Below, in pieces: positions 21,839-45,985 of a stretch of DNA of 61,891 nucleotides; the stretch's first letter is position 1, and the number at the start of each line of letters is the position of its first letter. The notes beneath the pieces were generated by a model, which worked only from the letters and a program-made list of their open reading frames with translations, did not search any database and had not been told where the DNA came from. The position numbers were made by a program, and so were the translations under genes. Source of the DNA: Thermoplasmatales archaeon SG8-52-3 (GTDB taxonomy: Archaea; Thermoplasmatota; E2; DHVEG-1); assembly GCA_001595915.1 (NCBI GenBank), contig LSSG01000053.1, positions 69,416-131,306 on the forward strand. Reading direction: 5' to 3'.

Positions 21839-21854
21839 TTGTAACATTTATATA
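21839..21854 (+). promoter_or_regulatory. TTGTAACA-TATA promoter class
   Basis: TTGTAACATTTATATA about 40 nt upstream of GTG 21895. Confidence 0.6.
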
Positions 21855-21894
21855 CTCTTTATTTGATTAATTTATTAGAGGGAGGCTTTAGGAA

Positions 21895-22404
21895 GTGAAT
21901 AAAGAAATCCTTATTGCAATTCTCTTTACAATTATTATGATAGTTACACCTTTCATAACAGTTGCCAGAGAAAATAAGATAAGCAATAATCTAACGGATC
22001 AACCAAATATTAAGGAACTTGTTATTCAACTAAATGTATTAATAAAAAAGATATCACAATTATATGGATATATCCCATTAGTTGATTCTCTATGCAATAG
22101 AATAATTGGAATATTAAACACAATTGTTTTGTTTATGTTCTGTGCTATTTTTGGATTATTTGTTGCTATCCCTCTAGCAATAATAATGTTAATTTTATTT
22201 TTCTCAGGAATTACAAATACCTATATAGGCCAAGCAATCTTTTATACTTTGTTTTTAATTTTTTTCATATGGGATTATAATTGCAATTTTATTACATTTC
22301 CTGTAGTTAGTCTTTTGGAAAATTTAATAAAACCAATATTTACAGTAAAAAACAAAAATGATATATTAGAGCTTTATAGAGAATGTCCTTGTATAAGTAA
22401 TTAG
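21895..22404 (+). CDS. Hypothetical secreted/membrane protein, Cys-containing
   Basis: GGAGG RBS, GTG start, signal peptide, two hydrophobic helices, C-terminal ECPC. Confidence 0.65.
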   Translation: MNKEILIAILFTIIMIVTPFITVARENKISNNLTDQPNIKELVIQLNVLIKKISQLYGYIPLVDSLCNRIIGILNTIVLFMFCAIFGLFVAIPLAIIMLILFFSGITNTYIGQAIFYTLFLIFFIWDYNCNFITFPVVSLLENLIKPIFTVKNKNDILELYRECPCISN

Positions 22405-22443
22405 TAAAATTTTTATATTTTATTTTCTTTATTTTTAAATATG

Positions 22444-22950
22444 TTAATTTTTTAGTTTTATTACTAAGTTTGCTACTCTTCTACCAAGTTTTATTGCATT
22501 TTTTTCAGTTTCCTTATCAGGAGCACCAATGCAAGCAACACCATAGTGACCAGTAGCATCAAGTGGATCACCAACTATTATCATTCCATAAATTAAAAAT
22601 GCTTGAATAATTGACATTATAGTTGTTTCTTTTCCACCAGATTCATCGCCAGATGTTACAAATGCAGCACCAATTTTATCACCCATCTTTTTACGTACAC
22701 CTACAAATCTATCAAACATATCTTTTAATTCAGCAGCCATTGTTCCAAAATATACAGGTGAACCTGCAATAATTCCATTTGATGAAATAAAATCATCCTT
22801 TGTTACTTTTGATGCTGGTTTTAATATACAATCAACCTTTTCCACATCTTTTACGCCCTTAGCAATCATCTGTGCTAGTTTTTTTGTATTACCTGATTTT
22901 GAAAAATAAGTAACCAATACTTTTAATGATTTATTCATAATAACTCCCAT
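22444..22950 (-). CDS. Flavodoxin-like / WrbA family NAD(P)H-dependent oxidoreductase
   Basis: YFSKSGNT phosphate loop, GSPVYFG, GGKETT motifs. Confidence 0.88.
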   Translation of the reverse strand: MGVIMNKSLKVLVTYFSKSGNTKKLAQMIAKGVKDVEKVDCILKPASKVTKDDFISSNGIIAGSPVYFGTMAAELKDMFDRFVGVRKKMGDKIGAAFVTSGDESGGKETTIMSIIQAFLIYGMIIVGDPLDATGHYGVACIGAPDKETEKNAIKLGRRVANLVIKLKN

Positions 22951-23054
22951 TCAAGTTAAACAACAAAGGAATTTAATTATTGTATAAAAACATACCTTTT
23001 GAAAAATATATATAAAAAAACTTATTCTTCTTTATATATTCAACAAATAGATAT

Positions 23055-23207
23055 ATGAGACCAAGATTTAAAACACCGATTAATCGAAAATATTTTCATA
23101 AAAAACAAAAAATCGATAAAAAGGATATGTCTTATCTTAAGAAAAGAATAGCCTTTTTAAATCAGAAAAAAATTAAAAAAGAGTCAGAAAAAAAAGAAAA
23201 GTATTAA
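23055..23207 (+). CDS. Small very basic hypothetical protein (50 aa)
   Basis: Hand-translated MRPRFKTPINRKYFHKKQKIDKKDMSYLKKRIAFLNQKKIKKESEKKEKY; TTTATATA about 20 nt upstream (leaderless geometry). Not in ORF track. Confidence 0.45.
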   Translation: MRPRFKTPINRKYFHKKQKIDKKDMSYLKKRIAFLNQKKIKKESEKKEKY

Positions 23208-23229
23208 ATTTATAATTATATGCTTTTAT

Positions 23230-23481
23230 TTAACTTTTTTTAAAATCTATTGCTTTGAAATATTTTCTACAGTCTCTCTTAATATTAGCCATTTGTTGTT
23301 GTGGAATTTTAAATGAATATTGAGCATATTCTAAAGCAAATATCAAACCATGAATAAAAGCACCTAACTTGTAATTTTTATCTTTACTAAGTTTAAATAT
23401 TTCATCAGCTATTTTTATTGCATCTTCAACAGTATAAGGAGTTGTTGAAGCTTTTGTTTTATGTTCATGTTCATGAGGCAT
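23230..23481 (-). CDS. Hypothetical helical protein (83 aa)
   Basis: Clean ORF with TATA-like element upstream; no recognisable motif. Confidence 0.65.
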   Translation of the reverse strand: MPHEHEHKTKASTTPYTVEDAIKIADEIFKLSKDKNYKLGAFIHGLIFALEYAQYSFKIPQQQMANIKRDCRKYFKAIDFKKS

Positions 23482-23535
23482 AAAGCAGCGTATAAACTTC
23501 TACTATAAATTTTTTTTTAGAAATTAATGTTTGGG

Positions 23536-23617
23536 AAAAAAAGAAGGTGGGCCGGCCTCGATAGGAGGGGATGGGATGCACTCTAATAAAACTACCAGCC
23601 CGATTCCTTCCATCACC
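23536..23617 (-). ncRNA. Candidate small RNA (GC-rich, structured, with own promoter and oligo-T end)
   Basis: Minus strand: GAAGG/CCTTC and GGGCTGG/CCGGCCC closing stems, then T7; GC-rich island in an AT-rich intergenic region. Confidence 0.5.
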
Positions 23618-23632
23618 TAGTATTTAGCCGTA

Positions 23633-23650
23633 GTTTAAGTATCTTTTTCG
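23633..23650 (-). promoter_or_regulatory. BRE-TATA of candidate sRNA
   Basis: Minus strand CGAAAAAGA-TACTTAAAC about 20-25 nt before the structured segment. Confidence 0.45.
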
Positions 23651-23654
23651 CAGA

Positions 23655-23676
23655 TGTATATGTAAGCACATATACA
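23655..23676. repeat. Perfect inverted repeat
   Basis: TGTATATGT-aagc-ACATATACA. Confidence 0.6.
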
Positions 23677-23725
23677 GCTAATTCACCAATTTATATTGTC
23701 AGTCTTTTTTTTATTTAGTGATTTA

Positions 23726-25177: not shown

Positions 25178-25477
25178 ATTACTCCCTTAATTATCATATC
25201 ATAGTTCGAATATAAAAATGTTATATATATTTATTAGTAAAATTAAGTTAGAAGATTTCATTAATACATATTTTTTGAATTTATGTATCCTTTAAAACTT
25301 AAATATAAATTAAATATGGCATGTATAATTTTTTTATTTAACATATTTATTTTAAAGATTTTATAGGGAAAATATTTAAAAGGATATCTTATAATTAATA
25401 AATAATAGTACAAAATTATATATTCCAAAAAAGTTAAAAAGGAAACAAAATATCTTAGATATAGGGGGTAAATCAGA

Positions 25478-27946: not shown

Positions 27947-27975
27947 TAATCTCCTTTTTTTTTCTTTTTAAAAAT

Positions 27976-28668: not shown

Positions 28669-28820
28669 AATGTGGTTTGCCCCATGTTTATAATATTTTT
28701 ATTATTTTGTTAGTATATAATTCTTTTGGATATAAATAAGTTTATAAGTACATGAATATTTAATGTTTTTATAAAATAGTATATAAATTTATTGCTTATT
28801 AAAAGCGAAAAGGTTATAAA

Positions 28821-29997: not shown

Positions 29998-32124
29998 TTA
30001 ATCAAAAAGATTTAGAAGAAGAAAGATATTTGGATATCTTTCTTTAAGATATAAAAATATAAAGTTTTCTACAGGTTTATTACGAGGAATAGTTATTTTA
30101 ATTGTTGTCAACTCACTTTCTGCACCATATATATCTTTTGCCTTAGCACTAATTGTATATTTTCCTCTAGAAGTCCAGTTATGACAACTGTATATTTTAA
30201 AACCAGATTCATATGGGCCTATCCAATCTTGACAGGTTCCATCACCCCAATCTATATAATAATATATATCATCGTCATCCGAATCTATAGAAGTTAAAAA
30301 GTACGTATATGAAACACCTACTGCACCACTAGTAGGTCCTTCGATTTCTGGAGCAGATGGTATATTATCTAATTGTAAAATAACTCTATCTTCACTAATC
30401 TGATCAAATGTATCATAAACCAATAATCTGATACAATAATAACTTTCATTTTCAGGAATTGGTGCTTCCCAAATAGATAAAGTAGCATTTTCAAGTGGAG
30501 TGTCTGATGTATGAATTAATGTCCATTCTTGTGGGTACATTCCTTCTCCAGAATAAACCTCATATTTTTCAAAATTATCACCATAAGCAGATCCTAAGAC
30601 AGAAACATTTCCAAAAACTATTGCATTATCCATTTCAGGTAATAGTTCTGCAATAGGTGAAGAATCCCTTATAATTGCCTGATAAGCATTTATTCTACCT
30701 GTTCCAATATATTTATCTGATGAATTTACATCATCTGTTGTTGATCTTATAATTGTCCATACTTGCTTTTGGCTGAAATATGGATTCTTTGAAAGAATTA
30801 ATGCAGCTAATGCTGCAACTTGGGGAGTAGCCATAGATGTTCCACTCCATGATACATAGGTATCATTGAAAAGTGTACTATACACATATTCACCGGCAGC
30901 AGCAACATCCACCCAGCTTCCAAAATTACTTCCAAATGCTGTATGAGCCCTGCTATCATTGTGATCTGTTGCTGCAACTGCTATAACATTTGGATAAGCT
31001 GCAGGATAATGTTCTATTCCATTTGCAATATTTCCTGCAGCTGCGACAAGTATTGTTCCCTTTGAATAGGAATAATTAACAGCATCCCAAATCAACCAGG
31101 TAATTTGAGACCCTCCCCAGCTCATACTTATAATATTTGCACCATTATCTGATGCATATTCCAGACCTTTTGCAGCGGCAACAATATCAATAAGACCTGC
31201 TCCACCAGAAGCCTTAAAACCGATTCTGACAGGCATTATACTACAATTCCAACATACTCCTGCAACACCAATGCCATTATCTGTTGAAGCACTAGCAATA
31301 CCTGAACAATGTGTACCATGTCCATGAAAATCCATCGGGTCATTATCAGGAATCGTTCCATCTTCACCAGGTACAACAGGTTTTGTAGTATTTACAAAAT
31401 CATATCCTCGAATATCATCAATATAACCGTTTCCATCGTCATCAAAATCATTAAAATCAGATGGATCAACAATACCATTACTGTTAAGATCCTCGCCGGA
31501 GTTAATCCAAATATTATCTTTTAGATCAGGATGATCCCAGTCAACTCCAGTATCATGTATACAAATTACAATGTCTTTGTTACCTGTTTCAATTTCCCAT
31601 GCCTCTGGCGCATCAATATCAGCATCAGGTATTCCACCTGTTTGACCGGAATTGTTTAGATAATATTGTAAATTAAAATCAGGGTCATTTGGAGTTTTGC
31701 AAGTTTGATATATATAATTTGGCTCCGCATATTCCACATTCGGATCTTGTGAATATTGATGTATAATTGAAAGAATATCTGAATTTTCAGGTACAGCAAA
31801 CTTGAAAATATTATCTAGATAAGGATTTTCATTAGATTTGAATATTTTTTCTGCAGATTTTACATTATTTTTTATATTTAATAAATCTATAGTATCAATA
31901 CCTGTATATAAAAAATTGTTTGAAGATTTGTAGATTTCTATATCTGCTTCTGCATTGAATTTTACTATAAATTCTCCATCAACAAATTTAAAAATTTCCT
32001 GTTCAATTATTATATCTAAATTATTTTTTATTATATTTTTTCCCAATCCTGAGTAAATATTTGTTCCAATTAAGATTGCAATTATAAATAAAAGTATATA
32101 TTTTCTATAATAATTTTTTTTCAT
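29998..32124 (-). CDS. Secreted S8 subtilase with prodomain, Ig-like and PKD-like domains and IPR tail
   Basis: Catalytic triad IHDTG, HGHGTHCSG, SGTSMATP; YAEPNY prodomain; ends TIPRNK..LKERYPNIFLLL. Confidence 0.92.
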   Translation of the reverse strand: MKKNYYRKYILLFIIAILIGTNIYSGLGKNIIKNNLDIIIEQEIFKFVDGEFIVKFNAEADIEIYKSSNNFLYTGIDTIDLLNIKNNVKSAEKIFKSNENPYLDNIFKFAVPENSDILSIIHQYSQDPNVEYAEPNYIYQTCKTPNDPDFNLQYYLNNSGQTGGIPDADIDAPEAWEIETGNKDIVICIHDTGVDWDHPDLKDNIWINSGEDLNSNGIVDPSDFNDFDDDGNGYIDDIRGYDFVNTTKPVVPGEDGTIPDNDPMDFHGHGTHCSGIASASTDNGIGVAGVCWNCSIMPVRIGFKASGGAGLIDIVAAAKGLEYASDNGANIISMSWGGSQITWLIWDAVNYSYSKGTILVAAAGNIANGIEHYPAAYPNVIAVAATDHNDSRAHTAFGSNFGSWVDVAAAGEYVYSTLFNDTYVSWSGTSMATPQVAALAALILSKNPYFSQKQVWTIIRSTTDDVNSSDKYIGTGRINAYQAIIRDSSPIAELLPEMDNAIVFGNVSVLGSAYGDNFEKYEVYSGEGMYPQEWTLIHTSDTPLENATLSIWEAPIPENESYYCIRLLVYDTFDQISEDRVILQLDNIPSAPEIEGPTSGAVGVSYTYFLTSIDSDDDDIYYYIDWGDGTCQDWIGPYESGFKIYSCHNWTSRGKYTISAKAKDIYGAESELTTIKITIPRNKPVENFIFLYLKERYPNIFLLLNLFD

Positions 32125-32293
32125 ATTTTTATAACTCCTAATAAATTATATATCTAGAATAGTTTATTTTAATTTAATGGTTTCTACTAATGAATTTTTT
32201 TAATAAAAATTAGAAAAATAAATGATAAAAGAAATATAAAATCAAATAATAGAATTTTTAAAATTTTTATTTTTATAAAAAATCAGAAAAAAA

Positions 32294-32521
32294 TTAAACG
32301 GATTTTATAGATTTTTTGATATTTACCTGATTTTCATATCTTATATACAATTTAAAAATTATCAACATTGATATTGCTACATATATTAAAGCAGTTAAAC
32401 CTAATAAGCCTTCAAGAGACATTATAAAATATGCAGGTAGTATTGGAATATATGAAAATATTAAAAACCAAATAAGAAATTGCCAAGCTTTCTTACCTTT
32501 TTGACTCATCCAATCAAACAT
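32294..32521 (-). CDS. Small two-helix membrane protein
   Basis: 75 aa, two hydrophobic helices, GGAGG RBS upstream. Confidence 0.6.
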   Translation of the reverse strand: MFDWMSQKGKKAWQFLIWFLIFSYIPILPAYFIMSLEGLLGLTALIYVAISMLIIFKLYIRYENQVNIKKSIKSV

Positions 32522-32823
32522 CTATTATCACATCCTCCATTTTTAATAAAATTTTCCCTTATGGTTTATACTCTTCTTATTTTAGTTTATATAACTTTCG
32601 TGTAAAAATGTCAAAAGGTTATTTTATTTAACTTGGAAGCATTATTATCATTAAAATATAAATGGATTATTAAATTATTATAGACTTAATAACAAAAAGA
32701 ATTTTTAATATAATAATACTTAAGTATGATTAAACAATAAGATATAAATACCTGCAGATAAAAAATTGATGCACTCATTTACTCATTTTTTTATTAGTAG
32801 GACAATAAATAAAAGGTAATATC

Positions 32824-33258
32824 ATGGAATGTATTGAAAAAGGAGATAAGGTAAAAATCAAATATGAGGCGAAATTAGAAAGTGGTGAGGAATGTTTTCC
32901 TGAAAATAATGATGATACTATTGAAATAATAATTGGAGAAGGAAAGATATTTTCTTCTATTGAAAATTGTTTAAAAGACATGAAAACAGGTGAAACAAAA
33001 ACTATTACAATTGAACCAAATGAAGCATTTGGCCCATATCATGAAAATTTAATAATTGATGCACCAAGAACATCCTTCAAAACAGATACCGATCTTTCAA
33101 TTGGTATGAGAATAAAAATCGATACTCCTACTGAAAAAGTTTATTATGCTACAATAATTAAAATGACTGATTCGGCAATAACTTTAGATTTGAATCATCC
33201 ATTAGCAGGTAAAAAATTGATTTTTACAGTAACTGTTGTTGATATCAATAAAAAATAA
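32824..33258 (+). CDS. slyD: FKBP-type peptidyl-prolyl isomerase (SlyD/short archaeal FKBP)
   Basis: GDKVKIKY, EAFG, LDLNHPLAGKKLIF motifs. Confidence 0.9.
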   Translation: MECIEKGDKVKIKYEAKLESGEECFPENNDDTIEIIIGEGKIFSSIENCLKDMKTGETKTITIEPNEAFGPYHENLIIDAPRTSFKTDTDLSIGMRIKIDTPTEKVYYATIIKMTDSAITLDLNHPLAGKKLIFTVTVVDINKK

Positions 33259-33326
33259 TTTTTTTAATAAATTTAATATAAAACTTTATATTCATATAAG
33301 TTTATATTTAGCAAAAAGATTATAAA

Positions 33327-33340
33327 TTAGCAATCGTTAG
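33327..33340 (+). promoter_or_regulatory. Degenerate TTAAC-N4-GTTAA site abutting TATA
   Basis: GCAAAAAGATTATAAA followed by TTAGCAATCGTTAG; same promoter layout as paralog 16206. Confidence 0.55.
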
Positions 33341-33357
33341 ATTAATGTTGAAATAGT

Positions 33358-34449: not shown

Positions 34450-34846
34450 AATTTATCTACCAAAAATAAATATCACTAGAATAATAGAGTCTAGTTCTGA
34501 AGAAAGAATGAATTTTTTAAAAAAATCTATTTCTTCATACTTTTCTTTCTGCCTCAGCTAAACCCTTCTTAAAAACATATTTTTTAAAACTAAAACTTTT
34601 AAATGTCTTGCAAAAAATGTTTTTGTTAAATTAAATGTAATCTAAATTTAAAAAAATAAAGGCAAATTGTTTGGGTTTATTCATTATGTTCATAAAATAT
34701 GCTTCATCATGCATTTTAAACTTTTGATACTTATGTAATAATAAAGATATCTAAACTTACATTTTAATCATTTTAAATATTTTTTAATGAAAGATAAACC
34801 TAAATTAATGTTTTATAAAATAGAAAAGATTTTATAAGGAAAAATA

Positions 34847-34860
34847 TTAACTATTGTTAA
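34847..34860 (+). promoter_or_regulatory. TTAAC-N4-GTTAA palindrome downstream of TATA
   Basis: TTAACTATTGTTAA about 9 nt after GAAAAGATTTTATAA. Confidence 0.68.
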
Positions 34861-34909
34861 GATTTATATACATTAATTATATTATTATATTAAAGGAGGC
34901 AACGAATTA

Positions 34910-36631
34910 ATGAACAAAAAAAACAATTTATTAAGTAAAACTTTAATCTTAAGTTTAACTTTATTGTTTATCGGAGCTAGTACTATACCAAACATTAGTG
35001 GATATGAAAATAAAACAAGAACTACGATGATAAAGGAAGTTTCTTCAGTTACTATTGATGAAGACGATTATGTAAATATTTTTTTGAAGTTTGATGAGGG
35101 TAATGGTAACACTGCAGGTGATTCTTCAGGCCATGATTATGATGGAACAATATATGGGGCTTCATGGACTACTGGAAAATATGGTTATGCACTGGATTTT
35201 GATGGAACAGATGATTATATCGACCTAGATGAACATACAAAAAATAAATTAGGTATTAATAAAACAGATGATTTGTATTTATCATTTTATTTTAGATCAT
35301 CTTCAACAAATAGGGGTATTATCTATAGTATGTGCAGAGGAGACTCCTATGGTTATAATCCAGGATTTCATGTTGCTATTACATCGGAAGGTAAAATTGA
35401 AGTACAGGTATGGCGTCTGAGTTGTGGAGTTCTAACTTGGTCCAATAATAGTTATAATGATGGTTCATGGCATTTCGTTGAAATTTATTATAACGGTATT
35501 CAAGATAACCCATTTGTAAAAATTGTTGTAGATGGAGATTTAGATCACACATTTAAAAAATATATATGTGATTTTTTTGGCGATCAATTTAGATATTGTC
35601 AAATAGGTAGACATAGTCATGAATTAATTGATTATTTTGATGGTACTTTAGATGAATTTAAAATAATTAAATATCCAGGGGGAAACGAACAATATCCTCC
35701 AGTCGTTACTGGCCCAATAACAGGACAACCAGGTATTGAATATGATTTTACCTTTTCAATTGATGACCCTGAAGGAGATTCTGTAATGCTATATATCAAC
35801 TGGGATGATGGAAATATTGAGGAACTTGGACCTTTTGAACCAGGTGAAGATGTTATAGTAAGTCATACATGGAATGTGGATGGGAGTTATGAAATTAAAG
35901 CAAAATGTTATGATATATGGGATGATAGTAGATACTCAGATATACATTTAATAAGAATTGGAGATCAAGCACCAGATAGACCTATTATAACTGGACCTAA
36001 ATATGGAGATCCACAGGAAGAACTAACATACACATTTGTTTCTTCAGACTATGAAGGAGAAGATATTAAGTATTACGTAGATTGGGGTGATGGTACAACA
36101 ACAGAAACAGATTATGTCCCATCGAATACTGAAGTAGAATTGTCACATAGTTTTCCATCAAATAATGATTATTATATGAGAGCAAGAGCAATAGACATAA
36201 AAAACAAAATTGGAGAATGGGAAGAATACCATATACGAATAGGGGATAAACCACCAAATAATCTAAAAATATATGGAGCAGTACAAGGAGTTCCTGGTGT
36301 CAAATATCAATATGCTTTTGTAGCATATGATCCAGAAGATGATAATTTAACATATGATATAGATTGGGGAGATGGCGATATTGAAACAGATATCGGACCA
36401 ATACTATCAGGTGAGATTTTAGTAAAAAAACACTCATGGAATCGAACACGTAACTATGTAATAAAAGTTCGTGTTAAGGATGAATTTGATTACTATACTC
36501 CTGGTTGGACGGAATTTGATGTTATCATACCACGAAGCAAAGTGTTAAATTTTAACTTATTAGACCTTTTATTCGAACGATTACCTTATAGGGGCACTAT
36601 AATTAAATATCTATTTAAGATGATTAACTAA
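34910..36631 (+). CDS. Secreted LamG/concanavalin-like protein with three PKD-like domains and IPR tail
   Basis: FDEGNGNTAGDSSG..ALDFDG..WHFV..FDGTLDEFKI; three W(D/G)DG domains; ends IIPRSK..LFERLP. Confidence 0.8.
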   Translation: MNKKNNLLSKTLILSLTLLFIGASTIPNISGYENKTRTTMIKEVSSVTIDEDDYVNIFLKFDEGNGNTAGDSSGHDYDGTIYGASWTTGKYGYALDFDGTDDYIDLDEHTKNKLGINKTDDLYLSFYFRSSSTNRGIIYSMCRGDSYGYNPGFHVAITSEGKIEVQVWRLSCGVLTWSNNSYNDGSWHFVEIYYNGIQDNPFVKIVVDGDLDHTFKKYICDFFGDQFRYCQIGRHSHELIDYFDGTLDEFKIIKYPGGNEQYPPVVTGPITGQPGIEYDFTFSIDDPEGDSVMLYINWDDGNIEELGPFEPGEDVIVSHTWNVDGSYEIKAKCYDIWDDSRYSDIHLIRIGDQAPDRPIITGPKYGDPQEELTYTFVSSDYEGEDIKYYVDWGDGTTTETDYVPSNTEVELSHSFPSNNDYYMRARAIDIKNKIGEWEEYHIRIGDKPPNNLKIYGAVQGVPGVKYQYAFVAYDPEDDNLTYDIDWGDGDIETDIGPILSGEILVKKHSWNRTRNYVIKVRVKDEFDYYTPGWTEFDVIIPRSKVLNFNLLDLLFERLPYRGTIIKYLFKMIN

Positions 36632-36645
36632 GGGAGGTAAAAAAG

Positions 36646-38574
36646 ATGAAAAAGAAAATAATAGGAATTTTTGTTTGTTTACTTTTAATTGTTGCTACTG
36701 TTATACCTGTTGCTGGAAATATAAAAAGAGAATCTACTACTCCAATATTTGCTATAAATACATCTGTTGATAAAATATCTTCATATAATGTATATTCTGT
36801 ACCTTTAGCAATATCTGTTACTGGACCAAGCGATTTATCTGAGGTAGGATTATATTATAGATGGAGCAGAGACAATGAAACTTGGTCAGGAGTTCAAAAG
36901 TATTCAATTTTTGAAGGATTTGAGTCAGGTACTCAAAATACAAGTCTATGGAATACATATCAAACAGGGGGAGATGCTAGAATTCAATTTGACTTTACAA
37001 ATGCTCACAGTGGGGCTTTTTCATGTGCTATGGATGATTTCGATTCTCAACAATTTGATTACTCTTTAAATGTTATTTACACAAAATTTGACTTTACTGA
37101 CGCTACTGGTATAAGTATCGATTTTTGGGAACGAGAATGGGGAGATGAATCAAATCCAGCTCCAGACCAATGGTCAGGTTGGGGAAATTATGATGTTGTC
37201 GCTTATACAAATGATGGAGATACTTGGTTTGAGATAGTTCCTGAATCAGTTTTAGATAATCAAGTATTTACACAAATTGAATATAACATATCTGATGATG
37301 ATAATTTCGAATCACCAGCCGACAGTAATTTTGCAATACTGTTTTCCCAATATGATAATGTTCAACTAACAAATGATGGACGTGCTTGGGATGATATCAC
37401 TATTGAATACTCTTTCGGTAAACCAAGTGTAAACTGGTCATTGTGGAATAACCCTAATAATCCTGATTTATTTTATCCATGGTATTGGGATTTTAACTTC
37501 CCAAATGGTACTGGTTATTATGAATTTTATAGCATTGGTAAAAAACCTGGAGAACCTGATGAGGCTCCACCACTCACAGCTGATACGATATGTAGATATA
37601 ATAGACGACCAGATATTTTTAATGAAAAACCAGCAAATGGAACCAAAAATGTAGATCTCAAACCAGAACTAGAGATATCTATTAGTGACGAAGATGGTGA
37701 AACAATGAACCTAACTTGGATTAGTAACAGCAGCGGTTCATGGAAAGCATTTGCAAGTGACTTAAATGTTGAAGATGGAACCTACTATTTTACCAATAAT
37801 AATTTTAGTGAATTTGATACTACATATTGGTGGTATTTAAAAGTTACAGATGGTATTTATACGGTAAATAGCCCGATTTTCCATTTTACGACTGAAAAAA
37901 ACCTTCCTCCATATACTCCAAGTAATCCTACGCCCGAAGATGGAGAAGTAGGTGTATCCATTCAAGAGATTCTTACTTGGTCCGGTGGAGATCCAAATCA
38001 GGGTGATAAAGTATATTATGATGTATACTTAGGCACCTCTAGTTCTCCGCCACTTGTTGCTGAAAATATACTACAGAACGCTTACGATCCTGGTACCTTG
38101 GAAGTAGATACAACATATTATTGGCAAATTGTCTCAGAGGATAGTCAAGGAGAAACCACTTCTGGATCAATTTGGAGTTTCACAACAGAAGCGGAAGCAA
38201 ATTATCCACCAACATCACCAAAAATTTATGGTTCACCAAATGCCCCTCCTGGAAAGGAATTATGCTGGGCTTTGATTTCAGATGATCCAGATGATCACGA
38301 GGTGAAGTATATTATAGATTGGGGTGATGGAAACTCTGTTGAAACAGATTATTATCAAGACGAAATGGCAATAGAAGAATGCCACACTTATACTGAAGAG
38401 GGCGAATACATAATTGTTGCAATATCAGAAGATGAGAAAGGACTTCAGAGCGAACAAGCTAAATTTGTAATTAAAATTCAAAAACCTAGATCGGTATTTC
38501 ATCCATTGCTACTACGGATACTTGAACGAATGCCAATGCTGGAAAGACTTCTTAAATTAATTAGAGCATTTTAA
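36646..38574 (+). CDS. Secreted multi-domain protein (beta-sandwich, Ig, FN3-like, PKD-like) with PR tail
   Basis: Signal peptide; GGDPN..YDVYLG..YYWQI; IIDWGDG; ends KPRSVFHPLLLRILERMPMLERLL. Confidence 0.78.
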   Translation: MKKKIIGIFVCLLLIVATVIPVAGNIKRESTTPIFAINTSVDKISSYNVYSVPLAISVTGPSDLSEVGLYYRWSRDNETWSGVQKYSIFEGFESGTQNTSLWNTYQTGGDARIQFDFTNAHSGAFSCAMDDFDSQQFDYSLNVIYTKFDFTDATGISIDFWEREWGDESNPAPDQWSGWGNYDVVAYTNDGDTWFEIVPESVLDNQVFTQIEYNISDDDNFESPADSNFAILFSQYDNVQLTNDGRAWDDITIEYSFGKPSVNWSLWNNPNNPDLFYPWYWDFNFPNGTGYYEFYSIGKKPGEPDEAPPLTADTICRYNRRPDIFNEKPANGTKNVDLKPELEISISDEDGETMNLTWISNSSGSWKAFASDLNVEDGTYYFTNNNFSEFDTTYWWYLKVTDGIYTVNSPIFHFTTEKNLPPYTPSNPTPEDGEVGVSIQEILTWSGGDPNQGDKVYYDVYLGTSSSPPLVAENILQNAYDPGTLEVDTTYYWQIVSEDSQGETTSGSIWSFTTEAEANYPPTSPKIYGSPNAPPGKELCWALISDDPDDHEVKYIIDWGDGNSVETDYYQDEMAIEECHTYTEEGEYIIVAISEDEKGLQSEQAKFVIKIQKPRSVFHPLLLRILERMPMLERLLKLIRAF

Positions 38575-38679
38575 GTTAATGTTCTAATCAATATTTAAGG
38601 GTTAATTCTAAATATTTGGATATTATAAAACAAGATAAAAATCTTGATATTTACCCTATTTAAATAAAAGTTTATATAT

Positions 38680-38693
38680 TTAACAAATGTTAT
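38680..38693 (+). promoter_or_regulatory. Near-consensus TTAAC-N4-GTTAA site abutting TATA
   Basis: AAAAGTTTATATA then TTAACAAATGTTAT. Confidence 0.55.
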
Positions 38694-38714
38694 CATATTA
38701 ATAATATATTCTTT

Positions 38715-39893
38715 TTGGGGAATAAAATGAAAAAAAAATATAGTGCTATTACTACTATATTATTATTTTTCATATTGCTGATTAGTTTTAATAATATTAA
38801 TACTAGTGCAGAACAAGAAATTAGCTCCAAATTAAATGAATTATCACCACTAAATTTCACAGATAATTTACCTTATGAAGGTTTTTTGCGTATCTATATA
38901 GTTGAACCCGATTCACGTTGGAACATGTATAATGGTCGACCATATCACTATGGATTTATTGATTTTGCTTATGAAGGAGCTTTATCAATTGATTATCTTG
39001 ACAGTTACCAAGATTCTATTACCTGGATAGGTGATGTTACAGAGGATAATGTTTTTGTAATTGCTGTAATCTTTAATCCAACTGCAAATATCGGTTATTC
39101 TTTTCCTCCTAGTTCTAAACCATTTGATGCCTATTATGTAGATGCAACAGCATCAGCTCATCCAGGGGAAAACGGATATAATATACGCGATGAAAACTTT
39201 ACTCATACAGTATTTATCGAGGAAGGGACTGGTACATGGTGTAAAAACTGCCCATCTGCTGCTGATTCATTATATAATCTTTCTAAATCTTCGACTATTC
39301 CTTTTTATTATGCAGCTATGGTTGAGGATATGAACAGTGCTGCACAAAAAAGACTTGAAGAAGATTACAACATTTTTGGATATCCAACACTTTATTATGA
39401 CGGTGGAAAAGAAGTACTTTTAGGTGGTGGGAACAGCGATGAGTATATTGAATCCTTGATTGAATCTTGTGCAGAAAGTGATGTTCATGAGCTTGATTTA
39501 AATCTAACAGTCTCATGGCAAGGTGATGGTGAACTAAAAATTGATTATAAAATTATAAACCTTGAAGAAATAATTCCACCTCAGTTTTATATTCAAAAAA
39601 TATATGGCGGAATAAAGAAAGTAAACGTATTTGTAGAAAACACTGGAGATAACAATAGTTATAATGTAGATTGGGAAATATCAATTACTGGCGGATTCTT
39701 GGGTAGAGTTAATTCAATATCCAATGGAACTATTGACGAATTTCCTAGTGGTGAAGCAAAGTTAATTAGATCAAAGGGACAGTTATTTCAACCCTTTGGT
39801 TTTGGAAATATTGAAGTTATTGTGAAAATAGGTACAAATATTGAGAAATTTAATTGCTTCATTTTTGGTCCATTCATTATTGTTAATATATAA
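38715..39893 (+). CDS. Secreted circularly permuted Omp28-like CxxC protein with GG/GFG C-terminal domain
   Basis: YEGFLRIYIVE..PFDAYYVD block precedes FTHTVFIEEGTGTWCKNC..GYPTLYYDGG; ends GGIKKV..GGFLG..FGFG..FGPFIIV. Probable ATG start 38727. Confidence 0.75.
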   Translation: MGNKMKKKYSAITTILLFFILLISFNNINTSAEQEISSKLNELSPLNFTDNLPYEGFLRIYIVEPDSRWNMYNGRPYHYGFIDFAYEGALSIDYLDSYQDSITWIGDVTEDNVFVIAVIFNPTANIGYSFPPSSKPFDAYYVDATASAHPGENGYNIRDENFTHTVFIEEGTGTWCKNCPSAADSLYNLSKSSTIPFYYAAMVEDMNSAAQKRLEEDYNIFGYPTLYYDGGKEVLLGGGNSDEYIESLIESCAESDVHELDLNLTVSWQGDGELKIDYKIINLEEIIPPQFYIQKIYGGIKKVNVFVENTGDNNSYNVDWEISITGGFLGRVNSISNGTIDEFPSGEAKLIRSKGQLFQPFGFGNIEVIVKIGTNIEKFNCFIFGPFIIVNI

Positions 39894-39896
39894 TAG

Positions 39897-40352
39897 GTGA
39901 AGAAAATGATGAAAAAAATATTGATATTAGGTATTTGTATGACGCTATTAGTGCCGATTGTTAATGCAGAAATGTTATTTAAAAACCCACCAGACATACC
40001 AGAGATTCATGGCCCTCCAAAAGGAAAAACCGGCGTGGACTATGAATATGAATTTTGTGCATCAGATCCTGATGGCGACGATATATACTTTTGTTATGAT
40101 TGGGGTGATGGGTCTGGTGAGGATTGCATAGGACCATTTCCTTCAGGTATTTGTATAAAACTAAATCATACTTGGACAGCTGATGGAACTTATACGATAA
40201 AATGTAAAGCTAGAGATATCAATCAAGAAGAGAGTGAATATGCAACACTTAATGTAGAAATGCCTCGTGTTTTTTTAAGGCCATTTTTACTAAAGACTAT
40301 CTTAGAAAAAATCTACGAGCGTATTTTAAATTATTTAATAGTTCTTCTTTAA
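39897..40352 (+). CDS. Secreted protein made only of a PKD-like domain and MPR tail
   Basis: Signal peptide, then PPDIPEIHGP..YDWGDG..EMPRVFLRPFLLKTILEKIYERIL. Probable ATG start 39906/39909. Confidence 0.75.
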   Translation: MKKMMKKILILGICMTLLVPIVNAEMLFKNPPDIPEIHGPPKGKTGVDYEYEFCASDPDGDDIYFCYDWGDGSGEDCIGPFPSGICIKLNHTWTADGTYTIKCKARDINQEESEYATLNVEMPRVFLRPFLLKTILEKIYERILNYLIVLL

Positions 40353-40463
40353 TTGAACAACTTTATTCTTTCTATTTTTTTATTTAATTTCTAAATTTTT
40401 ACTTGCTTTTGTAATCTTTAAATATTTCTTATATCATTATTTTTATTTAGGGAGGTTAAGAAA

Positions 40464-40682
40464 ATATGTACAGAAAAAATAATATTAGGATTAGGAATTC
40501 TTACTTTCATAGTAGGATTTGTTTTAATATCAATTGTTTCGTGGTTTTTAAATATGCGTGCAGGAGAAGATAGTCCTCCTACCTTTGAATTTGTATCAGT
40601 AATGGGATTATGGAGTCTTCTTGGTCTTGCATTAGTAGCAATAGGTATAATTGTTATTTTATTAATCAAATTTGAAAAATAA
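40464..40682 (+). CDS. Small two-TM membrane protein lacking an in-frame canonical start
   Basis: After GGGAGG: ATA TGT ACA GAA.. = (I)CTEKIILGLGILTFIVGFVLISIVSW..LWSLLGLALVAIGIIVILLIKFEK*. ATG at 40466 is out of frame by one base. Confidence 0.5.
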   Translation: MCTEKIILGLGILTFIVGFVLISIVSWFLNMRAGEDSPPTFEFVSVMGLWSLLGLALVAIGIIVILLIKFEK

Positions 40683-40701
40683 TTTCATTCCAGCAAGCCC
40701 A

Positions 40702-40718
40702 TTGTAACATTTAAATAT
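40702..40718 (+). promoter_or_regulatory. TTGTAACA-TATA promoter class
   Basis: TTGTAACATTTAAATAT, 35 nt upstream of ATG 40753. Confidence 0.7.
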
Positions 40719-40752
40719 TCACTAGGAGATTATAATTTTTAGGGAGAAAAAA

Positions 40753-41295
40753 ATGCTAAAATGTGAAAGATGTGGACTGGAAGGTGATTATACTCAAATT
40801 AAAACTTGTCCTGAAAAAATCACTCTCTGGGGTAACAAACCTATTTGTAAAAAATGCTATTTGTATCTAAAAGAAGTTGAAGAAAATAAAGTTTCTAAGG
40901 AAAAAACAAAATCTCAGATAAAATCAAATAAATCATTAAATTCAAATTTTAACAATAAAAAAAGTTTAACTGGTAAAGCGACTGATTATATAATTTTTTT
41001 AATTCAATTTTTAGGTGTATTGATTATACCAATGCCATTATTTTATTTTGGATTAAAAGATTGGAATTTCAGTTTGTTGAATCCTTTAGGAATATTACTA
41101 ATTATTAATATTATTCTTTCAATTACTATGATTTTTATCTTTTTTAGAGAGTCGAAAAAACGGGTTGGTAAACCTCATTTTCAAACTTTCATTTTTGGAA
41201 TTTCCTTAATTCCATTTATTCTTTCAATACATTGGGTTTTATCATTAGTAATTCCGCAGTTAACATATTGGTATTTTAAAAAAAGTTCATGGTAG
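40753..41295 (+). CDS. Membrane protein with N-terminal Zn-finger-like domain
   Basis: CERC..C..ICKKC followed by about four hydrophobic segments. Confidence 0.65.
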   Translation: MLKCERCGLEGDYTQIKTCPEKITLWGNKPICKKCYLYLKEVEENKVSKEKTKSQIKSNKSLNSNFNNKKSLTGKATDYIIFLIQFLGVLIIPMPLFYFGLKDWNFSLLNPLGILLIINIILSITMIFIFFRESKKRVGKPHFQTFIFGISLIPFILSIHWVLSLVIPQLTYWYFKKSSW

Positions 41296-41349
41296 ATTAT
41301 TGAAAAAATTTTTTGATAAGATATTCATATTATCTAAAATTATTAATAA

Positions 41350-41366
41350 TTGTAACATTTAAATAT
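41350..41366 (+). promoter_or_regulatory. TTGTAACA-TATA promoter class
   Basis: TTGTAACATTTAAATAT, identical to 40702. Confidence 0.7.
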
Positions 41367-41386
41367 CTAACAGTGTATATAAAATA

Positions 41387-42505
41387 TTGAGGGAGGTAAA
41401 AAATATGAGAAATAAAAAAATTGGAATTATAATTTGTATGATGCTATTAATTACAAGTTTATCTGTGTCTGCATCAATTGAAAAAGAATTAACTCAGAGC
41501 GTTTATTTAACAGATGAAATTAAAGATATTTTATTAATATTAGATTCATGTATCGTACCTGATAATGGAGAAGGTACTGCTGATCTACCTGCTGATTGCC
41601 CTTATGAATCATCTGAAGACCCATTCTATATAATTAACGGCTTACCACCTGATACTACTATCGAGTTAGAGCCGGTATTTGATGATTTTTATAATATTGT
41701 AAGGACTCCAGGTGGACCATTAGGTGGTGAAATCCTTGAATTTGATGCTACACTTGGATTAGTTGTAACAGGTACTGGTGATTTAACAGGATTTAATCGA
41801 ATTCTTTCAGTACCTGTCTCATTTGAAATAAATACTGCACCTCGAACTCCAGGTGATCCTGTTCAAAGCTTTATAAGTGAATTATTTCAATTAGAAGGAG
41901 AGTTATTTGGCGATCCAGATTTTTGTATGTTTCGAATAAAGGCAGGCGAATTTTATGGACTACCAAGTCCTGGTCAGTTCATATTAACAAAAATGCTTAG
42001 CGGTAATTTTAATATCGATAGTTTTTTTGATATAACATATCAAATTGAATTTGAGGGTTGTCCAGCTTCACCTTTAGATGATTATATGGGGACAACAGTT
42101 AATACAACTCGTTTGCAACAAGGTATTGAGTTTTTAAATGATCCACCAAGTAAACCAATTATTGATGGTCCAATAAATGGAGAAAATGGAAAGGCTTATC
42201 CTTATACATTTACTTCAATTGATCCTGATGGAGATGATATATCATACTTTATAAGATGGGGTGACGGAAAAGAAACTGATTGGACAACTTTTCAGACTTC
42301 TGGTCCACCTGGTTATACTGAAAGTCATTCTTGGGATACTCAGGGAACTTATATTATTCAAGCAAAAGCCAAAGACATATATAATGTTGAGAGCAACTGG
42401 GGTGAGCTTGAAGTTGAAATACCAAGAACCAGAGCAACATCTTATCTATGGTTCCTTGAGCGTTTTCCAATGCTGGAAAGACTACTAACTCTTTTGTTGT
42501 TGTAA
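41387..42505 (+). CDS. Secreted protein, unknown beta-rich domain + PKD-like domain + IPR tail
   Basis: Signal peptide (ATG 41405 likely); [15 protein letters not shown]; IRWGDG; ends [24 protein letters not shown]. Confidence 0.75.
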
Positions 42506-42516
42506 CATTTAAATAT
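42500..42516 (+). promoter_or_regulatory. TTGTAACA-TATA promoter class
   Basis: TTGTAACATTTAAATAT overlapping the stop codon of the upstream gene. Confidence 0.7.
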
Positions 42517-42552
42517 CCAGTATTAGATTTATTTTACCACGGAGGTAGGACC

Positions 42553-44754
42553 TTGAAGAATTGGTTAGTCAGAAAAGGTTTGGTTTTAGGGATAACTATA
42601 ATGATTATTTGTATAAGTGTTGTTTCAGGTAATTGTGCAAACTTCAAAAAGCTGAATAATATAATAGATGCAGATTTTATTGAGAATACATGGAACCGAG
42701 AGATACTTTATGAGAACCCACCTAGTGAGGAATGGAACTATACATTCGGAGGAACAAATAGTGAATATGGTTTTTCTGTTGATCAAACTACTGATGGAGG
42801 ATATATTATAACAGGAGGGACAGATTCTTTTGGTGCTGGAGATTATGATGTTTGGCTGGTTAAGACAGATTCCAATGGTTCTGAGGAGTGGAATCAGACT
42901 TTTGGAGGAACAGATTATGATGTGGGTTATTGTGTTCACCAGACAACTGATGGAGGATACATTATAACAGGAAGGACAGATTCTTTTGGTACTGATGGTG
43001 ATGTCTGGTTAATTAAGATTGATAGTGATGGTGATGAGGTGTGGAATAGGACTTTCGGAGGAACAAATTATGATGTAGGTTATTGTGTTCAGCAGACTAC
43101 TGATGGAGGATTCATTATATCTGCAAACACATTTTCTTATGGAGCTGGATCTTATGATGTTTGGCTTGTTAAGACGGATTCTAATGGTACTGAGGAGTGG
43201 AATCAGACATTTGGAGATACAGGTCAAGATACCAGTCAATTTGTTCAGCAAACAACTGATGGAGGATACATTATAACAGGTCGAACAGAATCATATGGCG
43301 CTGGACATTATGATGCTTGGTTGATTAAGACGGATTCTAATGGTACTGGTGAATGGATGCAGACATTCGGAGGTAACGATTTTGATTTTGGATATTGTGT
43401 TCAGCAAACAACTGATGGAGGATATATCCTTACAGGTTGGACAAGATCATATGGTGCTGGAACTTATGATGTTTGGTTGATTAAGACAGATCCAGATGGT
43501 TCTGAGATGTGGAGTCAAACATACGGAGGATATTATTCTGATGAAGGTTTTTCTCTAAAGCAAACTACTGATGGGGGATATATCATATTAGGTAATACAT
43601 GGAATTATGGCGCTGGAGATAATGATATCTGGCTTGTTAAAACCGATTCCAATGGTAATGAGGAGTGGAATCAGACATTCGGGGGAACAAGTGCTGAGTA
43701 TGGCTATTGTGTTCAGCAAACAACTGATGAAGGATACATTATAACAGGAAGAACTGATTCATTTGGTGCTGGTGGTGATTTATGGCTAATAAAGATAGAA
43801 AAGGAAAATAGTCCACCTTATGAACCTTCTAATCCCTATCCAGAAAACAACTCATTTGGTGTAGATGTTGAGACGAATCTTAGTTGGACAGGTGGTGATC
43901 CTGATGGAGACTCTCTAACATACGATGTTTATTTAGAAGCCAATGATTCAACACCAGACATTCTTGTTTCAGAAAATCAAACTGATACAACTTATGATCC
44001 TGGAACCATGAACTATAGCACAAGATATTACTGGAAAATCGTTGCATGGGACGAACATGGAGTTTCAACAGATGGCCCTATTTGGGATTTCACAACAATG
44101 TCAGACTCAAATCACCCACCAAATAAACCAATTATCTATTATGAAAACAATACCTTATTTGTTAATGCAACCGATATTGACAATGACGATTTAATGTACT
44201 TTATTGATTGGGGAGATGGAAACTCTGAAGAAACAGGTTATTACCCGCCTGGAGAAACAGTAGAAATTAACCATACTTATACATGGCCTGGTGTGTATTA
44301 TATTTTAGTAAAAGTAATAGATATTCATTATGCTGAAAGCGATTGGTCAGATCCATATGAGATAATTATAGAAAACAATCCACCTCAAGTTCCTGATATT
44401 GATGGTCCTAGCAGTGGTGTGGCTGGAGCGTCATATAATTTTACATTTATTTCAGTTGATCTTGATGGTGACGATGTTTATTTCTATATTTTATGGGGAG
44501 ATGGTTATGTTGAAGATTGGGAAGGTCCTTTTGCATCAGGTGAAGATTTTGAGATAGCTCATACCTATTCTAATAAGAAAACATATTTAATTGAGGCAAA
44601 AGCAAGAGATATTTATGGTGATGAAAGTCTTGTTGCCACACATGAGATAAATATCCCACGTACCAGAGCATCATCATATATTTGGTTTGAATGGCTGTTA
44701 GAACATTTCCCAATGCTGGAAAGACTGCTATTATTAGTTATAGAAATTAAATGA
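42553..44754 (+). CDS. Secreted 7-repeat beta-propeller protein with FN3-like and two PKD-like domains and IPR tail
   Basis: Seven about 48-aa repeats ([32 protein letters not shown]); ends [18 protein letters not shown]. Confidence 0.8.
42721..43800 (+). repeat. Intragenic tandem repeat, 7 x about 144 bp
   Basis: Recurring CAGCAAACAACTGATGGAGGATA-like and GAGGAGTGGAATCAGAC-like segments. Boundaries approximate. Confidence 0.75.
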
Positions 44755-45191
44755 AAAAGATAATTAGAATATCAAGTTTAATACTTAGATCACTAGTAAT
44801 TGCTTTTTTTGCAGTATCTATATTCTATGCTATTGATATTAATCCTGATACTATTTCACCACAACCGCTTATAGAAATTGAAAAATATACTAATGTTCCG
44901 AAAACCCATGGTGATGATCAATCGTATAATTGTTCAAAGTGTCATTATGAACCATTATATGCTGAATGTACAGATTGCCATATCCCTGACTACTGGATTG
45001 GAGATGATGATGGTACATATATGGCTCATCATGATTTATCCTATAATGGTTTTATAGACTGTTGGTCAGTTGATTGTCATAATCCTCCCAATCCAAATGA
45101 TATTAGATTCGTTAAAACTAATCTACTAGATGGAGGCGATTGGCAAGAATTTTGCTATACAAAATGTCATAACGAAAGTGAACTCGGTTAA
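44751..45191 (+). CDS. Small multiheme c-type cytochrome, N-terminally anchored or secreted
   Basis: N-terminal hydrophobic helix; CSKCH, CTDCH, CWSVDCH, CYTKCH; ATGA overlap with upstream gene. Confidence 0.7.
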
Positions 45192-45323
45192 TCATCAAAA
45201 TTATTATTTTAATATATATATTTAATAAAAAAATTCTTGTTTTTATGATTAATATACTGTCATTCTCAGTATTTGAACTGGAATTTAATAGTAAAAAGAT
45301 AGTAATTATTCTTTTTTAGGTTG

Positions 45324-45340
45324 TTGTAACATTTAAATAT
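45324..45340 (+). promoter_or_regulatory. TTGTAACA-TATA promoter class
   Basis: TTGTAACATTTAAATAT; 23-bp identity with the 42497 copy (TTGTTGTAACATTTAAATATCCA). Confidence 0.7.
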
Positions 45341-45346
45341 CCAACA

Positions 45347-45838
45347 ATGGATGTAAAATATGAGGGAGGAATAATATTGTTTAAGAAAATCCTCGTAGTA
45401 GGGATAATAATCCTGTTTCTGGGAATTGCTATACAACCAAGTGTAGCAGCTGATACTAATATTAAAGATGGTGAAGATGATTGTAATCTTTGTCCAAAGA
45501 AAGTTAGTAAACAACAGATTTTTACTATTAATAATATATTAAAGAGTATAAATAAAAAAAGTATTTTAAAACCTGATAAACTTCAACAAGATCCACCTTT
45601 TTGTAATTTTTTGTTTATCATGCTTGGAATAAATGCCCTTATTGATTATTTTACGTTAGCAATATATCATTTTTTTGAATTTTTACCATTTCAAATTTTA
45701 TTAATTTTATATTTTCCAATATTTTATTATTTACAAAATAATATTAATAAAAGAGGTTATGATCTATATTCTACAGCCTGGGAGTTAGGTTGTTACTGGG
45801 CAGTTTTTCCTCCAAAACCTTTAGAGAGGACAGGATAA
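45347..45838 (+). CDS. Hypothetical secreted/membrane protein with CxxCP motif
   Basis: Signal peptide (TTG 45377 after GGGAGG likely start), DDCNLCPK, hydrophobic C-terminal half with two more Cys. Confidence 0.65.
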   Translation: MDVKYEGGIILFKKILVVGIIILFLGIAIQPSVAADTNIKDGEDDCNLCPKKVSKQQIFTINNILKSINKKSILKPDKLQQDPPFCNFLFIMLGINALIDYFTLAIYHFFEFLPFQILLILYFPIFYYLQNNINKRGYDLYSTAWELGCYWAVFPPKPLERTG

Positions 45839-45903
45839 TATGAAAAAATCGAAAGAGCCTGAAAATAAGGGCTTTCGGAATGATTTATAACAAGAAGAAA
45901 TAG

Positions 45904-45949
45904 CGCCGCCTACTGGAATAATACTTAAAATTCCTTTTAGTACCGTTTT
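45904..45949 (-). pseudogene. Collapsed remnant of the tRNA-Asn locus
   Basis: Three collinear blocks match the tRNA locus: 45904-17 vs 48208-21 (13/14), 45925-37 vs intron 48257-69 (12/13), 45939-49 vs upstream flank 48346-56 (11/11). Confidence 0.6.
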
Positions 45950-45967
45950 TGTTATATTTTTAACAGA

Positions 45968-45985
45968 TTGTTAACATTTAAATAT
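45968..45985 (+). promoter_or_regulatory. Variant TTGTAACA-TATA promoter
   Basis: TTGTTAACATTTAAATAT; overlaps a TTAAC-N5-GTTAA palindrome (45960..45974). Confidence 0.6.

Follow-up and report, generated by a model that had tools for sequence, protein, structure and literature searches.

A probable, genus-restricted TGTAACA promoter class, with a probable operator, ahead of exported-protein genes of a sediment archaeon

Here, we analysed a 61,891-nt stretch of the genome of Thermoplasmatales archaeon SG8-52-3 (contig LSSG01000053.1, positions 69,416 to 131,306; the whole of this stretch is called the window below) and a 17-mer, TTGTAACATTTAAATAT, that recurs in it a short distance upstream of genes. 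We think it probable (about 0.72) that this 17-mer is the heart of a regulon-specific archaeal core promoter for exported-protein genes, accompanied by a probable operator. The analysis establishes its position, orientation and spacing, its restriction to one genus, its association with signal peptides, and purifying selection. The element itself is of a known kind, namely an archaeal core promoter; what is new is a genus-restricted TGTAACA class that serves exported-protein genes. The source genome comprises 1.9 Mb in 84 contigs at 30% G+C, and the window encodes FttA/aCPSF1, SRP54 and many secreted peptidases. In the literature, we found no paper linking Thermoprofundales and promoters.

The promoter module and its distribution

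Across the source genome, the 17-mer occurs 8 times exactly and 14 times at ≤1 mismatch; a prior interpretation made from the letters alone (the sequence-only reading) had called for such a scan, and we also classified the genes downstream as it proposed. Twelve of the 14 copies precede, and are co-oriented with, a start codon that has a GGAG-type ribosome-binding site, the distance from motif end to start codon being 34-43 nt wherever an open reading frame (ORF) was called, and nearly all copies are intergenic and sense-oriented. The products of 10 of the 12 called downstream genes are signal-peptide-like, versus a background of 23% among all genes called (p = 1.6e-5; a hydrophobicity rule served to recognize signal peptides, and the gene caller was crude).

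Standard archaeal promoters carry their TATA box at about -30 to -23. Pooling of 55 sites from the genus yielded the module gTT(a/g)-TTGTAACA-TTTAAATA-TCC-N7-GAT(g)-AT-rich-TGAGGGAGG-N5-11-start (ATG) (n = 55). The first T of the TATA box is 30 nt from GAGGGAGG in 33 of these sites and 31 nt in another 11, and since the spacing from TATA to the Shine-Dalgarno (SD) sequence is held at 30-31 nt in 44 of the 55, the transcript start is predicted on the G of GAGGGAGG, which has a T before it. The distance from SD to start codon is looser (5-11 nt), and the TATA box begins 45-48 nt ahead of the start codon in 37 of 48 sites. As expected of a core promoter, then, a TTTAWATA box is found in intergenic DNA, in sense and at a constrained distance. 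Often, the motif is preceded by a T-rich run, which would fit termination of the upstream gene.

Within its genome, this promoter appears to form a separate class. Its fixed bases are T-G-T (-7 to -5) and C-A (-2/-1) before the box and TCC, an A, and GAT (+18 to +20 from the TATA start) after it, whereas other TATA-bearing upstream regions share only A-A at -4/-3 and have no pattern 3′ of the box. At the position of the B recognition element (BRE), A-A at -4/-3 and G at -6 match the generic profile of the genome, but T-7, T-5 and C-2 depart from it. Promoters of tRNA genes are here of the GAAAG plus TTTTTATAA type, and a second secreted-protein promoter class (class 1) has GAAAA(a/g)-TTTATAA and, behind it, the palindrome TTAAC-N4-GTTAA; it has 47 sites genome-wide, with 26 of 30 downstream genes signal-peptide-like. 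It is because the tRNA and class-1 promoters both use a purine-rich GAAAG-type BRE that we regard the TGTAACA promoters as distinct, and the earlier observation that TGTAACA replaces a purine-rich BRE agrees with the GAAAG and GAAAA of these two groups. In class 1, whose BRE is purine-rich both in the window (3700-35000) and genome-wide, the palindrome varies in position relative to the TATA box. We also considered TGTAACA acting alone and rejected this, since the heptamer is not enriched genome-wide (541 found versus about 450 expected; 11 abut a TATA box).

The bases 3′ of the box form a dyad, ATC-N8-GAT, which spans the 3′ end of the TATA box to about -10 and is retained in 43-55 of the 55 sites (A15-T28 in 55, T16-A27 in 53, and C17-G26 in 43, 42 of them as C-G). 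A conserved dyad overlapping or just 3′ of the TATA box is what one would look for in an operator, and this site is absent from the other promoters. Because its inner positions are neither constant nor covarying (Watson-Crick in 17 and 27 of the 55), the dyad behaves like the site of a dimeric protein, that is, a probable operator, and not like a hairpin. One could instead view the block as an RNA element in a 5′ leader transcribed from upstream, for example an AUCCA...UGGAU hairpin, as the 5+5 inverted repeat in the consensus might suggest. We consider the chances of this to be next to negligible; the inner pairs lack covariation, four window copies show folding energies on a par with or worse than those of shuffles (z -0.23 to +1.35) and differ in predicted structure, Rfam returned no match, and only 0-19 nt separate the upstream stop from the motif at the copies at 40702 and 42500. 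With no stable or shared fold, no covariation and no Rfam match, the RNA-structure candidate was set aside.

The motif class is restricted to one genus of Thermoplasmatota. We scanned 61 genomes, comprising four of the genus and 57 other relatives (including 33 sister genera of the same family), at ≤1 mismatch. The four genus genomes hold 14, 34, 22 and 49 copies (119 in total, 84 of them exact), while each of the 57 others holds 0-3; a reversed-pattern control gave 0 in the four and 0-2 elsewhere. Chance or low complexity is ruled out by these controls across the 61 genomes together with shuffles. When 185,579 species genomes were searched for the exact 17-mer, multiple matches per genome were confined to metagenome-assembled genomes labelled “Thermoplasmatales archaeon” in GenBank (it is on these GenBank titles that the taxonomic name of the genus members rests), and the remaining records had single scattered matches. 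A search for degenerate copies in sister genera at ≤3 mismatches found a weak excess only (e.g., 19 versus 4 in the control), which ordinary BRE/TATA resemblance would explain.

The 17-mer is also under purifying selection. A gene of the window for a 366-residue protein (41405-42505) has orthologues in two congeners, G002 and G003, at about 89-91% protein identity; ahead of these, the 17-mer and the next base are unchanged, while the DNA upstream of them cannot be aligned and substitutions are numerous in the TATA-to-SD spacer. Over 45 sites, mean pairwise identity is about 0.31 upstream of the motif, 0.97/0.88 across it, 0.52-0.58 from there to the SD, 0.35-0.47 in the signal-peptide codons, and 0.31 beyond. 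Given that the 17-mer is invariant while both flanks diverge, it is selected and not recently copied; gene conversion or young duplicates would have left a broader identity peak.

These figures bear on a simpler reading, namely that no special factor is involved and that one ancestral strong promoter was duplicated along with its signal peptide and kept for high expression. The N-terminal signal peptides of many downstream proteins are indeed alike (KTLVIGIIILFIG..QP), and the motif retains the AA core of the generic BRE. Nevertheless, we find this reading improbable. The mature proteins are unrelated, the signal-peptide DNA is much less alike (0.35-0.47) than the motif (0.9-1.0), and the tRNA promoters, presumably the strongest of the genome, have a different BRE and lack TCC/GAT. 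Moreover, exact conservation in four species despite diverged flanks exceeds what generic TBP and TFB would need.

The diversity of the genes that share the promoter is considerable. The 42 full-length downstream proteins from the genus fall into 16 clusters with unrelated mature regions, and Pfam identified PKD domains in 10, NosD/beta-helix domains in 5, PQQ-type propellers in 3, and subtilase (S8) and LamG domains in 2 each; the others had weaker or no Pfam matches. Many motif-driven proteins end in an ERFP-type C-terminal tail. At four congener loci (L048, L084, L091 and L102) and on contig C50 of the source genome itself, we noticed an alternative conserved C terminus in its place, (F/H/N)PA(K/Q/S)EPYD(I/M)(D/E)V, which is possibly a second C-terminal tag.

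Recognition of the promoter and comparison with known systems

In the mechanism that we favour, TTTAAATA would be the TATA box, and the abutting TGTAACA would sit at the BRE position, keeping the generic AA at -4/-3 and swapping out the GAAAG-type purine run. On the 3′ side of the box, TCC-N7-GAT would make up the ATC-N8-GAT dyad, to be followed by the AT-rich stretch and then by TGAGGGAGG at 30-31 nt from the first TATA T, and a start on the G of the SD would leave a leader of about 13-19 nt. Every such gene, often standing behind a T-tract, would be its own transcription unit. TBP and TFB would presumably assemble on the 17-mer, and a dedicated factor may read the class-specific bases on either side of the TATA box; our preferred guess is that a dimeric regulator binds the dyad and, in the manner of known archaeal repressors, prevents or gates the recruitment of polymerase. 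The exoproteome genes would thereby come under one common switch.

Like the canonical archaeal core promoter, the motif has an 8-bp TTTAWATA box, A-A at -4/-3, a constant spacing to the coding start that follows, and a predicted start at a purine some 30 nt after the first TATA T. Unlike it, the motif has an invariant TGTAACA before the box instead of a degenerate GAAAG-type run, and the approximately 12 bases after the box are class specific too. Operator-controlled archaeal promoters with a dyad just 3′ of the TATA box reportedly include the TGM/TrmBL1 promoters of Thermococcales and the NrpR operators of methanogens. These systems share with the motif, as does class 1 of the present genome, a dyad that starts from the TATA end, a centre-to-centre distance of ~10 bp, and a functionally coherent gene set; indeed, several class-1 promoters place their 5-N4-5 palindrome at the very position of the motif's dyad. 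The motif differs from such operator promoters in conserving only the outer three bases of each half-site and in having a BRE-position element of its own.

The class-specific bases stand exactly where TFB reads the BRE, and they depart from the GAAAG BRE of the tRNA and class-1 promoters. This raises the possibility (the sequence-only reading, too, had advanced an alternative TFB) that TGTAACA plus TTTAAATA is read by a dedicated TFB (or TBP) paralogue and that the class is switched by the level of this factor. There is precedent at the haloarchaeal hsp5 promoter, where BRE/TATA alone can confer factor-specific regulation via TFB2/TFBb (PMC2396416), and three of the four motif genomes have 2-3 TFB genes. 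Both hsp5 and the UV-inducible, TFB3-linked hexanucleotide of Sulfolobus (PMC5817253) resemble the motif in that a regulon is set in or next to core elements, although the Sulfolobus hexanucleotide lies upstream of these elements (PMC5817253), whereas TGTAACA abuts the TATA box. In contrast to the TFB-directed systems, no TFB paralogue co-distributes with the motif. The four motif genomes have 2, 1, 2 and 3 TFB genes and sister genera without the motif have 2-5 (a count of TFB genes in genomes that are 64-88% complete by marker count, with parts of G001 masked), and G001, a closed 1.82-Mb chromosome with 34 copies of the motif, shows a single one. No TFB paralogue is common to all four motif genomes, and a genus-specific TFB, sought among them, was not found. 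Nor would a general transcription factor account for the conserved GAT at about -11. An alternative TFB is possible, but we regard it as unlikely.

Several points weigh against a dedicated, operator-controlled promoter. First, the promoter was assigned from geometry and comparison, and the transcript starts are predicted ones. Second, the sites in the consensus were picked at ≤1 mismatch, so that conservation within the 17-mer is partly a matter of ascertainment, although the flanking GAT, TCC and SD positions are free of this bias. Third, the A and T of the left dyad half double as bases of the TATA flank, which leaves the right half (GAT) as the independent evidence for a dyad. Fourth, we found no regulator or TFB whose distribution matches that of the motif, and no candidate for a cognate DNA-binding regulator in the window. 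Finally, a few congener copies lack an SD. Two exact 17-mers of this sort (L006 and L014) share TTCGTCAAAAT about 45-55 nt downstream; what is transcribed from them may be a small RNA or a gene whose leader is long.

Promoter copies of the window and their genes

The window was scanned for the 17-mer at ≤2 mismatches, with 100 dinucleotide shuffles as a control. Seven copies were observed versus 0.24 expected, and none of the 100 shuffles reached 7. The copies and the genes behind them are as follows.

21839-21855, + strand: diverged promoter copy TTGTAACATTTATATAC (two mismatches), 39 nt upstream of a GTG start
21895-22404: gene with GTG start for a 169-residue signal-peptide protein, downstream of the 21839 copy
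40409-40425, + strand: diverged promoter copy TTGTAATCTTTAAATAT, followed by GGGAGG and an ATG at 40466
40466-40682: small ORF with two transmembrane (TM) segments after the 40409 copy, frameshifted in an A6 run
40702-40718, + strand: exact copy; TATA box 40710-40717, AGGGAG 40741-40746, ATG 40753
40753-41295: gene for a 180-residue Zn-ribbon/multi-TM protein, downstream of the 40702 copy
41350-41366, + strand: exact copy; TATA box 41358-41365, GAGGGAGG 41389-41396 with the predicted transcript start
41405 (ATG) to 42505: 366-residue PKD protein with an ERFP tail, downstream of the 41350 copy
42500-42516, + strand: exact copy; TATA box 42508-42515, GGAGG 42541-42545
42553 (TTG) to 44754: 733-residue repeat/PKD protein, downstream of the 42500 copy
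44751-45191: gene for a 146-residue CxxCH-rich protein, overlapping the stop of the 733-residue gene (ATGA)
45324-45340, + strand: exact copy; TATA box 45332-45339, GAGGGAGG 45362-45369
45338-45351: dyad ATCCA-N4-TGGAT at the 45324 copy
45377 (TTG) to 45838: 153-residue signal-peptide protein, downstream of the 45324 copy
45954-45985, + strand: hybrid copy; TTAAC-N5-GTTAA palindrome continuing into the TATA box as GTTAACATTTAAATAT
46024 (ATG) to 48117: 697-residue S8 peptidase with PKD domains and an ERFP tail, ~38 nt downstream of the hybrid copy

The scan re-found the four exact copies that the sequence-only reading had listed and its variants at 21839 and 45968, and it added the copy at 40409, which had been overlooked. 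The 45968 copy reads TTGT[T]AACATTTAAATAT, that is, it has a single-base insertion relative to the 17-mer; it is counted at two mismatches as 45969-45985, and the GTTAACATTTAAATAT of the hybrid is likewise the 17-mer plus one additional T. The sequence said to be shared by the copies at 42497 and 45321 proved to be GTTGTTGTAACATTTAAATATCCA, about 24 nt from 42496 and 45320. The placement ahead of probable start codons is borne out by a distance from motif end to start codon of 34-40 nt at six tabulated sites (at 40409, about 40 nt as read off the sequence), as is the overlap of one copy with the stop of the gene before it; the 42500 copy contains the TAA (42503-42505) that ends the gene of the 41350 copy, whose called frame runs from 41387 to 42505. 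Of the window copies, that at 45324 comes nearest to the genus consensus. The hybrid copy, together with a promoter on contig 62 whose canonical N4 palindrome is placed as in the hybrid, hints that TGTAACA may have descended from a palindrome half-site, which is speculation on our part.

A few of the genes deserve comment. The 40466 ATG opens a frame of 33 codons, and a convincing two-TM ORF of 71 residues resumes in the +1 frame past the A6 run. Because the run is identical in three independent assemblies, it should represent either a real frameshift (pseudogene) or a slippery site. The 40753-41295 gene is among the few motif-driven genes without a signal peptide; its product, which combines a CxxC...CxxC zinc ribbon at the N terminus with several TM helices, is conceivable as a membrane-tethered regulator. 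The 44751-45191 gene is probably cotranscribed with the 733-residue gene, and its exported product, with four CxxCH-type motifs and a weak Pfam match to class III cytochrome c, is a possible small multihaem cytochrome.

The tRNA-Asn region, array evolution and the exoproteome

The array of promoter copies lies beside a tRNA gene.

48206-48327 (about), - strand: tRNA-Asn(GTT) with an intron, read from the sequence and from intact orthologues in three congeners

Its naming as tRNA-Asn in the sequence-only reading was correct, the anticodon being GTT, and the intron is at the canonical 37/38 position. In this assembly, and in none of the three congeners, the D-arm contains a 21-nt tandem duplication (48273-48314), because of which ARAGORN missed the gene by default and called it Met when introns were allowed. 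A second tRNA-Asn gave no match in the 79%-complete genome, and the duplication may be an assembly artefact or the mark of a damaged gene. The tRNA is the conserved boundary of a variable secreted-protein region. The description of the class as one that stands ahead of accessory secreted-protein genes was sound, given the canonical geometry, the distinct TGTAACA, and a region near the tRNA-Asn that differs among four congeners.

This variability is one argument for regarding the motif as a recombination junction, i.e., a site at which cassettes are inserted, excised or shuffled, whether through a site-specific recombinase or because tail-plus-promoter junctions cross over unequally, its promoter-like look being secondary. 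The window has seven co-oriented copies in direct-repeat arrays, and the DNA flanking the tRNA-Asn differs in all four species, with three different secreted-protein arrays and none in G001. BLAST homology to the G002 and G003 orthologues begins within 1 nt of the motif; at about 13 of the 55 sites, an upstream ERFP-tail gene stops at a TAA inside the motif, giving a shared junction of ~65 nt; and several congener contigs break at the motif. The differences in gene content, the start of homology and the stops within the motif fit the idea of a promoter that travels with its gene. Reuse of promoters has been described by Nijveen, Matus-Garcia and van Passel (PMC3575422), and the reused promoters, like ours, are highly similar sequences before nonhomologous genes within a genome. 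Near-identical upstream sequence ahead of 16 unrelated protein clusters is what such reuse would produce, and the likeness covers reuse, not mobility. As points of difference, the motif tract is short (~20 nt perfect, ~50 nt in all), is selected across species, and shows no connection with any mobile element or with breakpoints of rearrangement.

The strain comparison proposed by the sequence-only reading was carried out, and neither of the two breakpoints that it uncovered coincides with a motif. A contig from another sample (JGI 3300027917) is 99.985% identical to the window over 31405-45121 (13.7 kb) and then continues into unrelated genes; the breakpoint at 45121 is inside the CxxCH gene, 203 nt ahead of the next motif, and represents either a strain variant or a chimeric contig. 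Beyond this switch (L133:13718-15680) are three unrelated genes that are absent from the source genome, one with a weak match to DruA (defence). A second contig (ENA ERZ27279932) is 99.74% identical up to 48221, where it diverges about 15 nt inside the 3′ end of the tRNA-Asn, a typical attachment position, as though another strain had received an att-type insertion at this tRNA. Past that point (L132:16822-18539), it encodes a secreted NosD-like beta-helix protein, with a degenerate copy of the same promoter.

Other evidence likewise disfavours a junction. Two solitary motif genes amid housekeeping genes have identical neighbours in 3-4 independent samples, conservation takes the form of a sharp ~20-nt peak at a fixed distance from the start codon, and the site is always in sense orientation at promoter distance, 5′ of the gene. 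In the window, we found no flanking inverted repeats or target duplications around the motifs and no repeat of the tRNA 3′ end, so that the signature of an integrated element was rejected there. An attC-like or other site-specific junction is disfavoured by breakpoints that are off the motif, by the missing inverted repeats and by the 5′ position of the site. Recombinase-like genes come no closer to the promoter array than 25 kb; judged from translation only, the adjacent ORFs at 13172-13987 and 14092-14841 have serine-recombinase-like N termini (..YTRVSTEDQ.. and ..YIRVSKGEQ..). Viral carriage was also considered and dropped, the 7 IMG/VR matches to a 19-mer lacking the extended module and being ascribed to chance. 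With the breakpoints at 45121 and 48221 off the motif, a sharp peak, no inverted repeats and stable solitary copies, a recombination or insertion junction, the other proposal of the sequence-only reading, is in our view very improbable.

A more speculative idea, for which we would hold out only slim hope, is that the junction (the coding end of an ERFP tail, a stop in the motif, the promoter, the SD and a signal peptide) doubles as a plug-in point in the evolution of the arrays. Were this true, recombination between such junctions, or a recombinase recognizing the 17-mer, would insert, delete and rearrange entire secreted-protein genes, each of which would bring its own promoter and supply the gene upstream of it with a stop codon; archaea would then possess a cassette system embedded in promoters.

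Returning to the core promoter with its probable operator, the finding leaves the understanding of archaeal transcription unchanged, although it does place three promoter types side by side in one genome: the GAAAG-type tRNA promoters, the TTAAC-N4-GTTAA class and the TGTAACA class. Thermoprofundales (marine benthic group D, MBG-D) are abundant, uncultured archaea that are credited with the breakdown of detrital protein in marine sediments via exported enzymes. The interest of the motif, which we would call moderate, lies mainly in the access that it offers to the exoproteome regulon of an uncultured sediment archaeon. It supplies a defined 40-bp probe for capturing the responsible factor, and as a sequence tag it lets the regulon be predicted from genomes, at 14-49 genes per species, many of them without a known domain.

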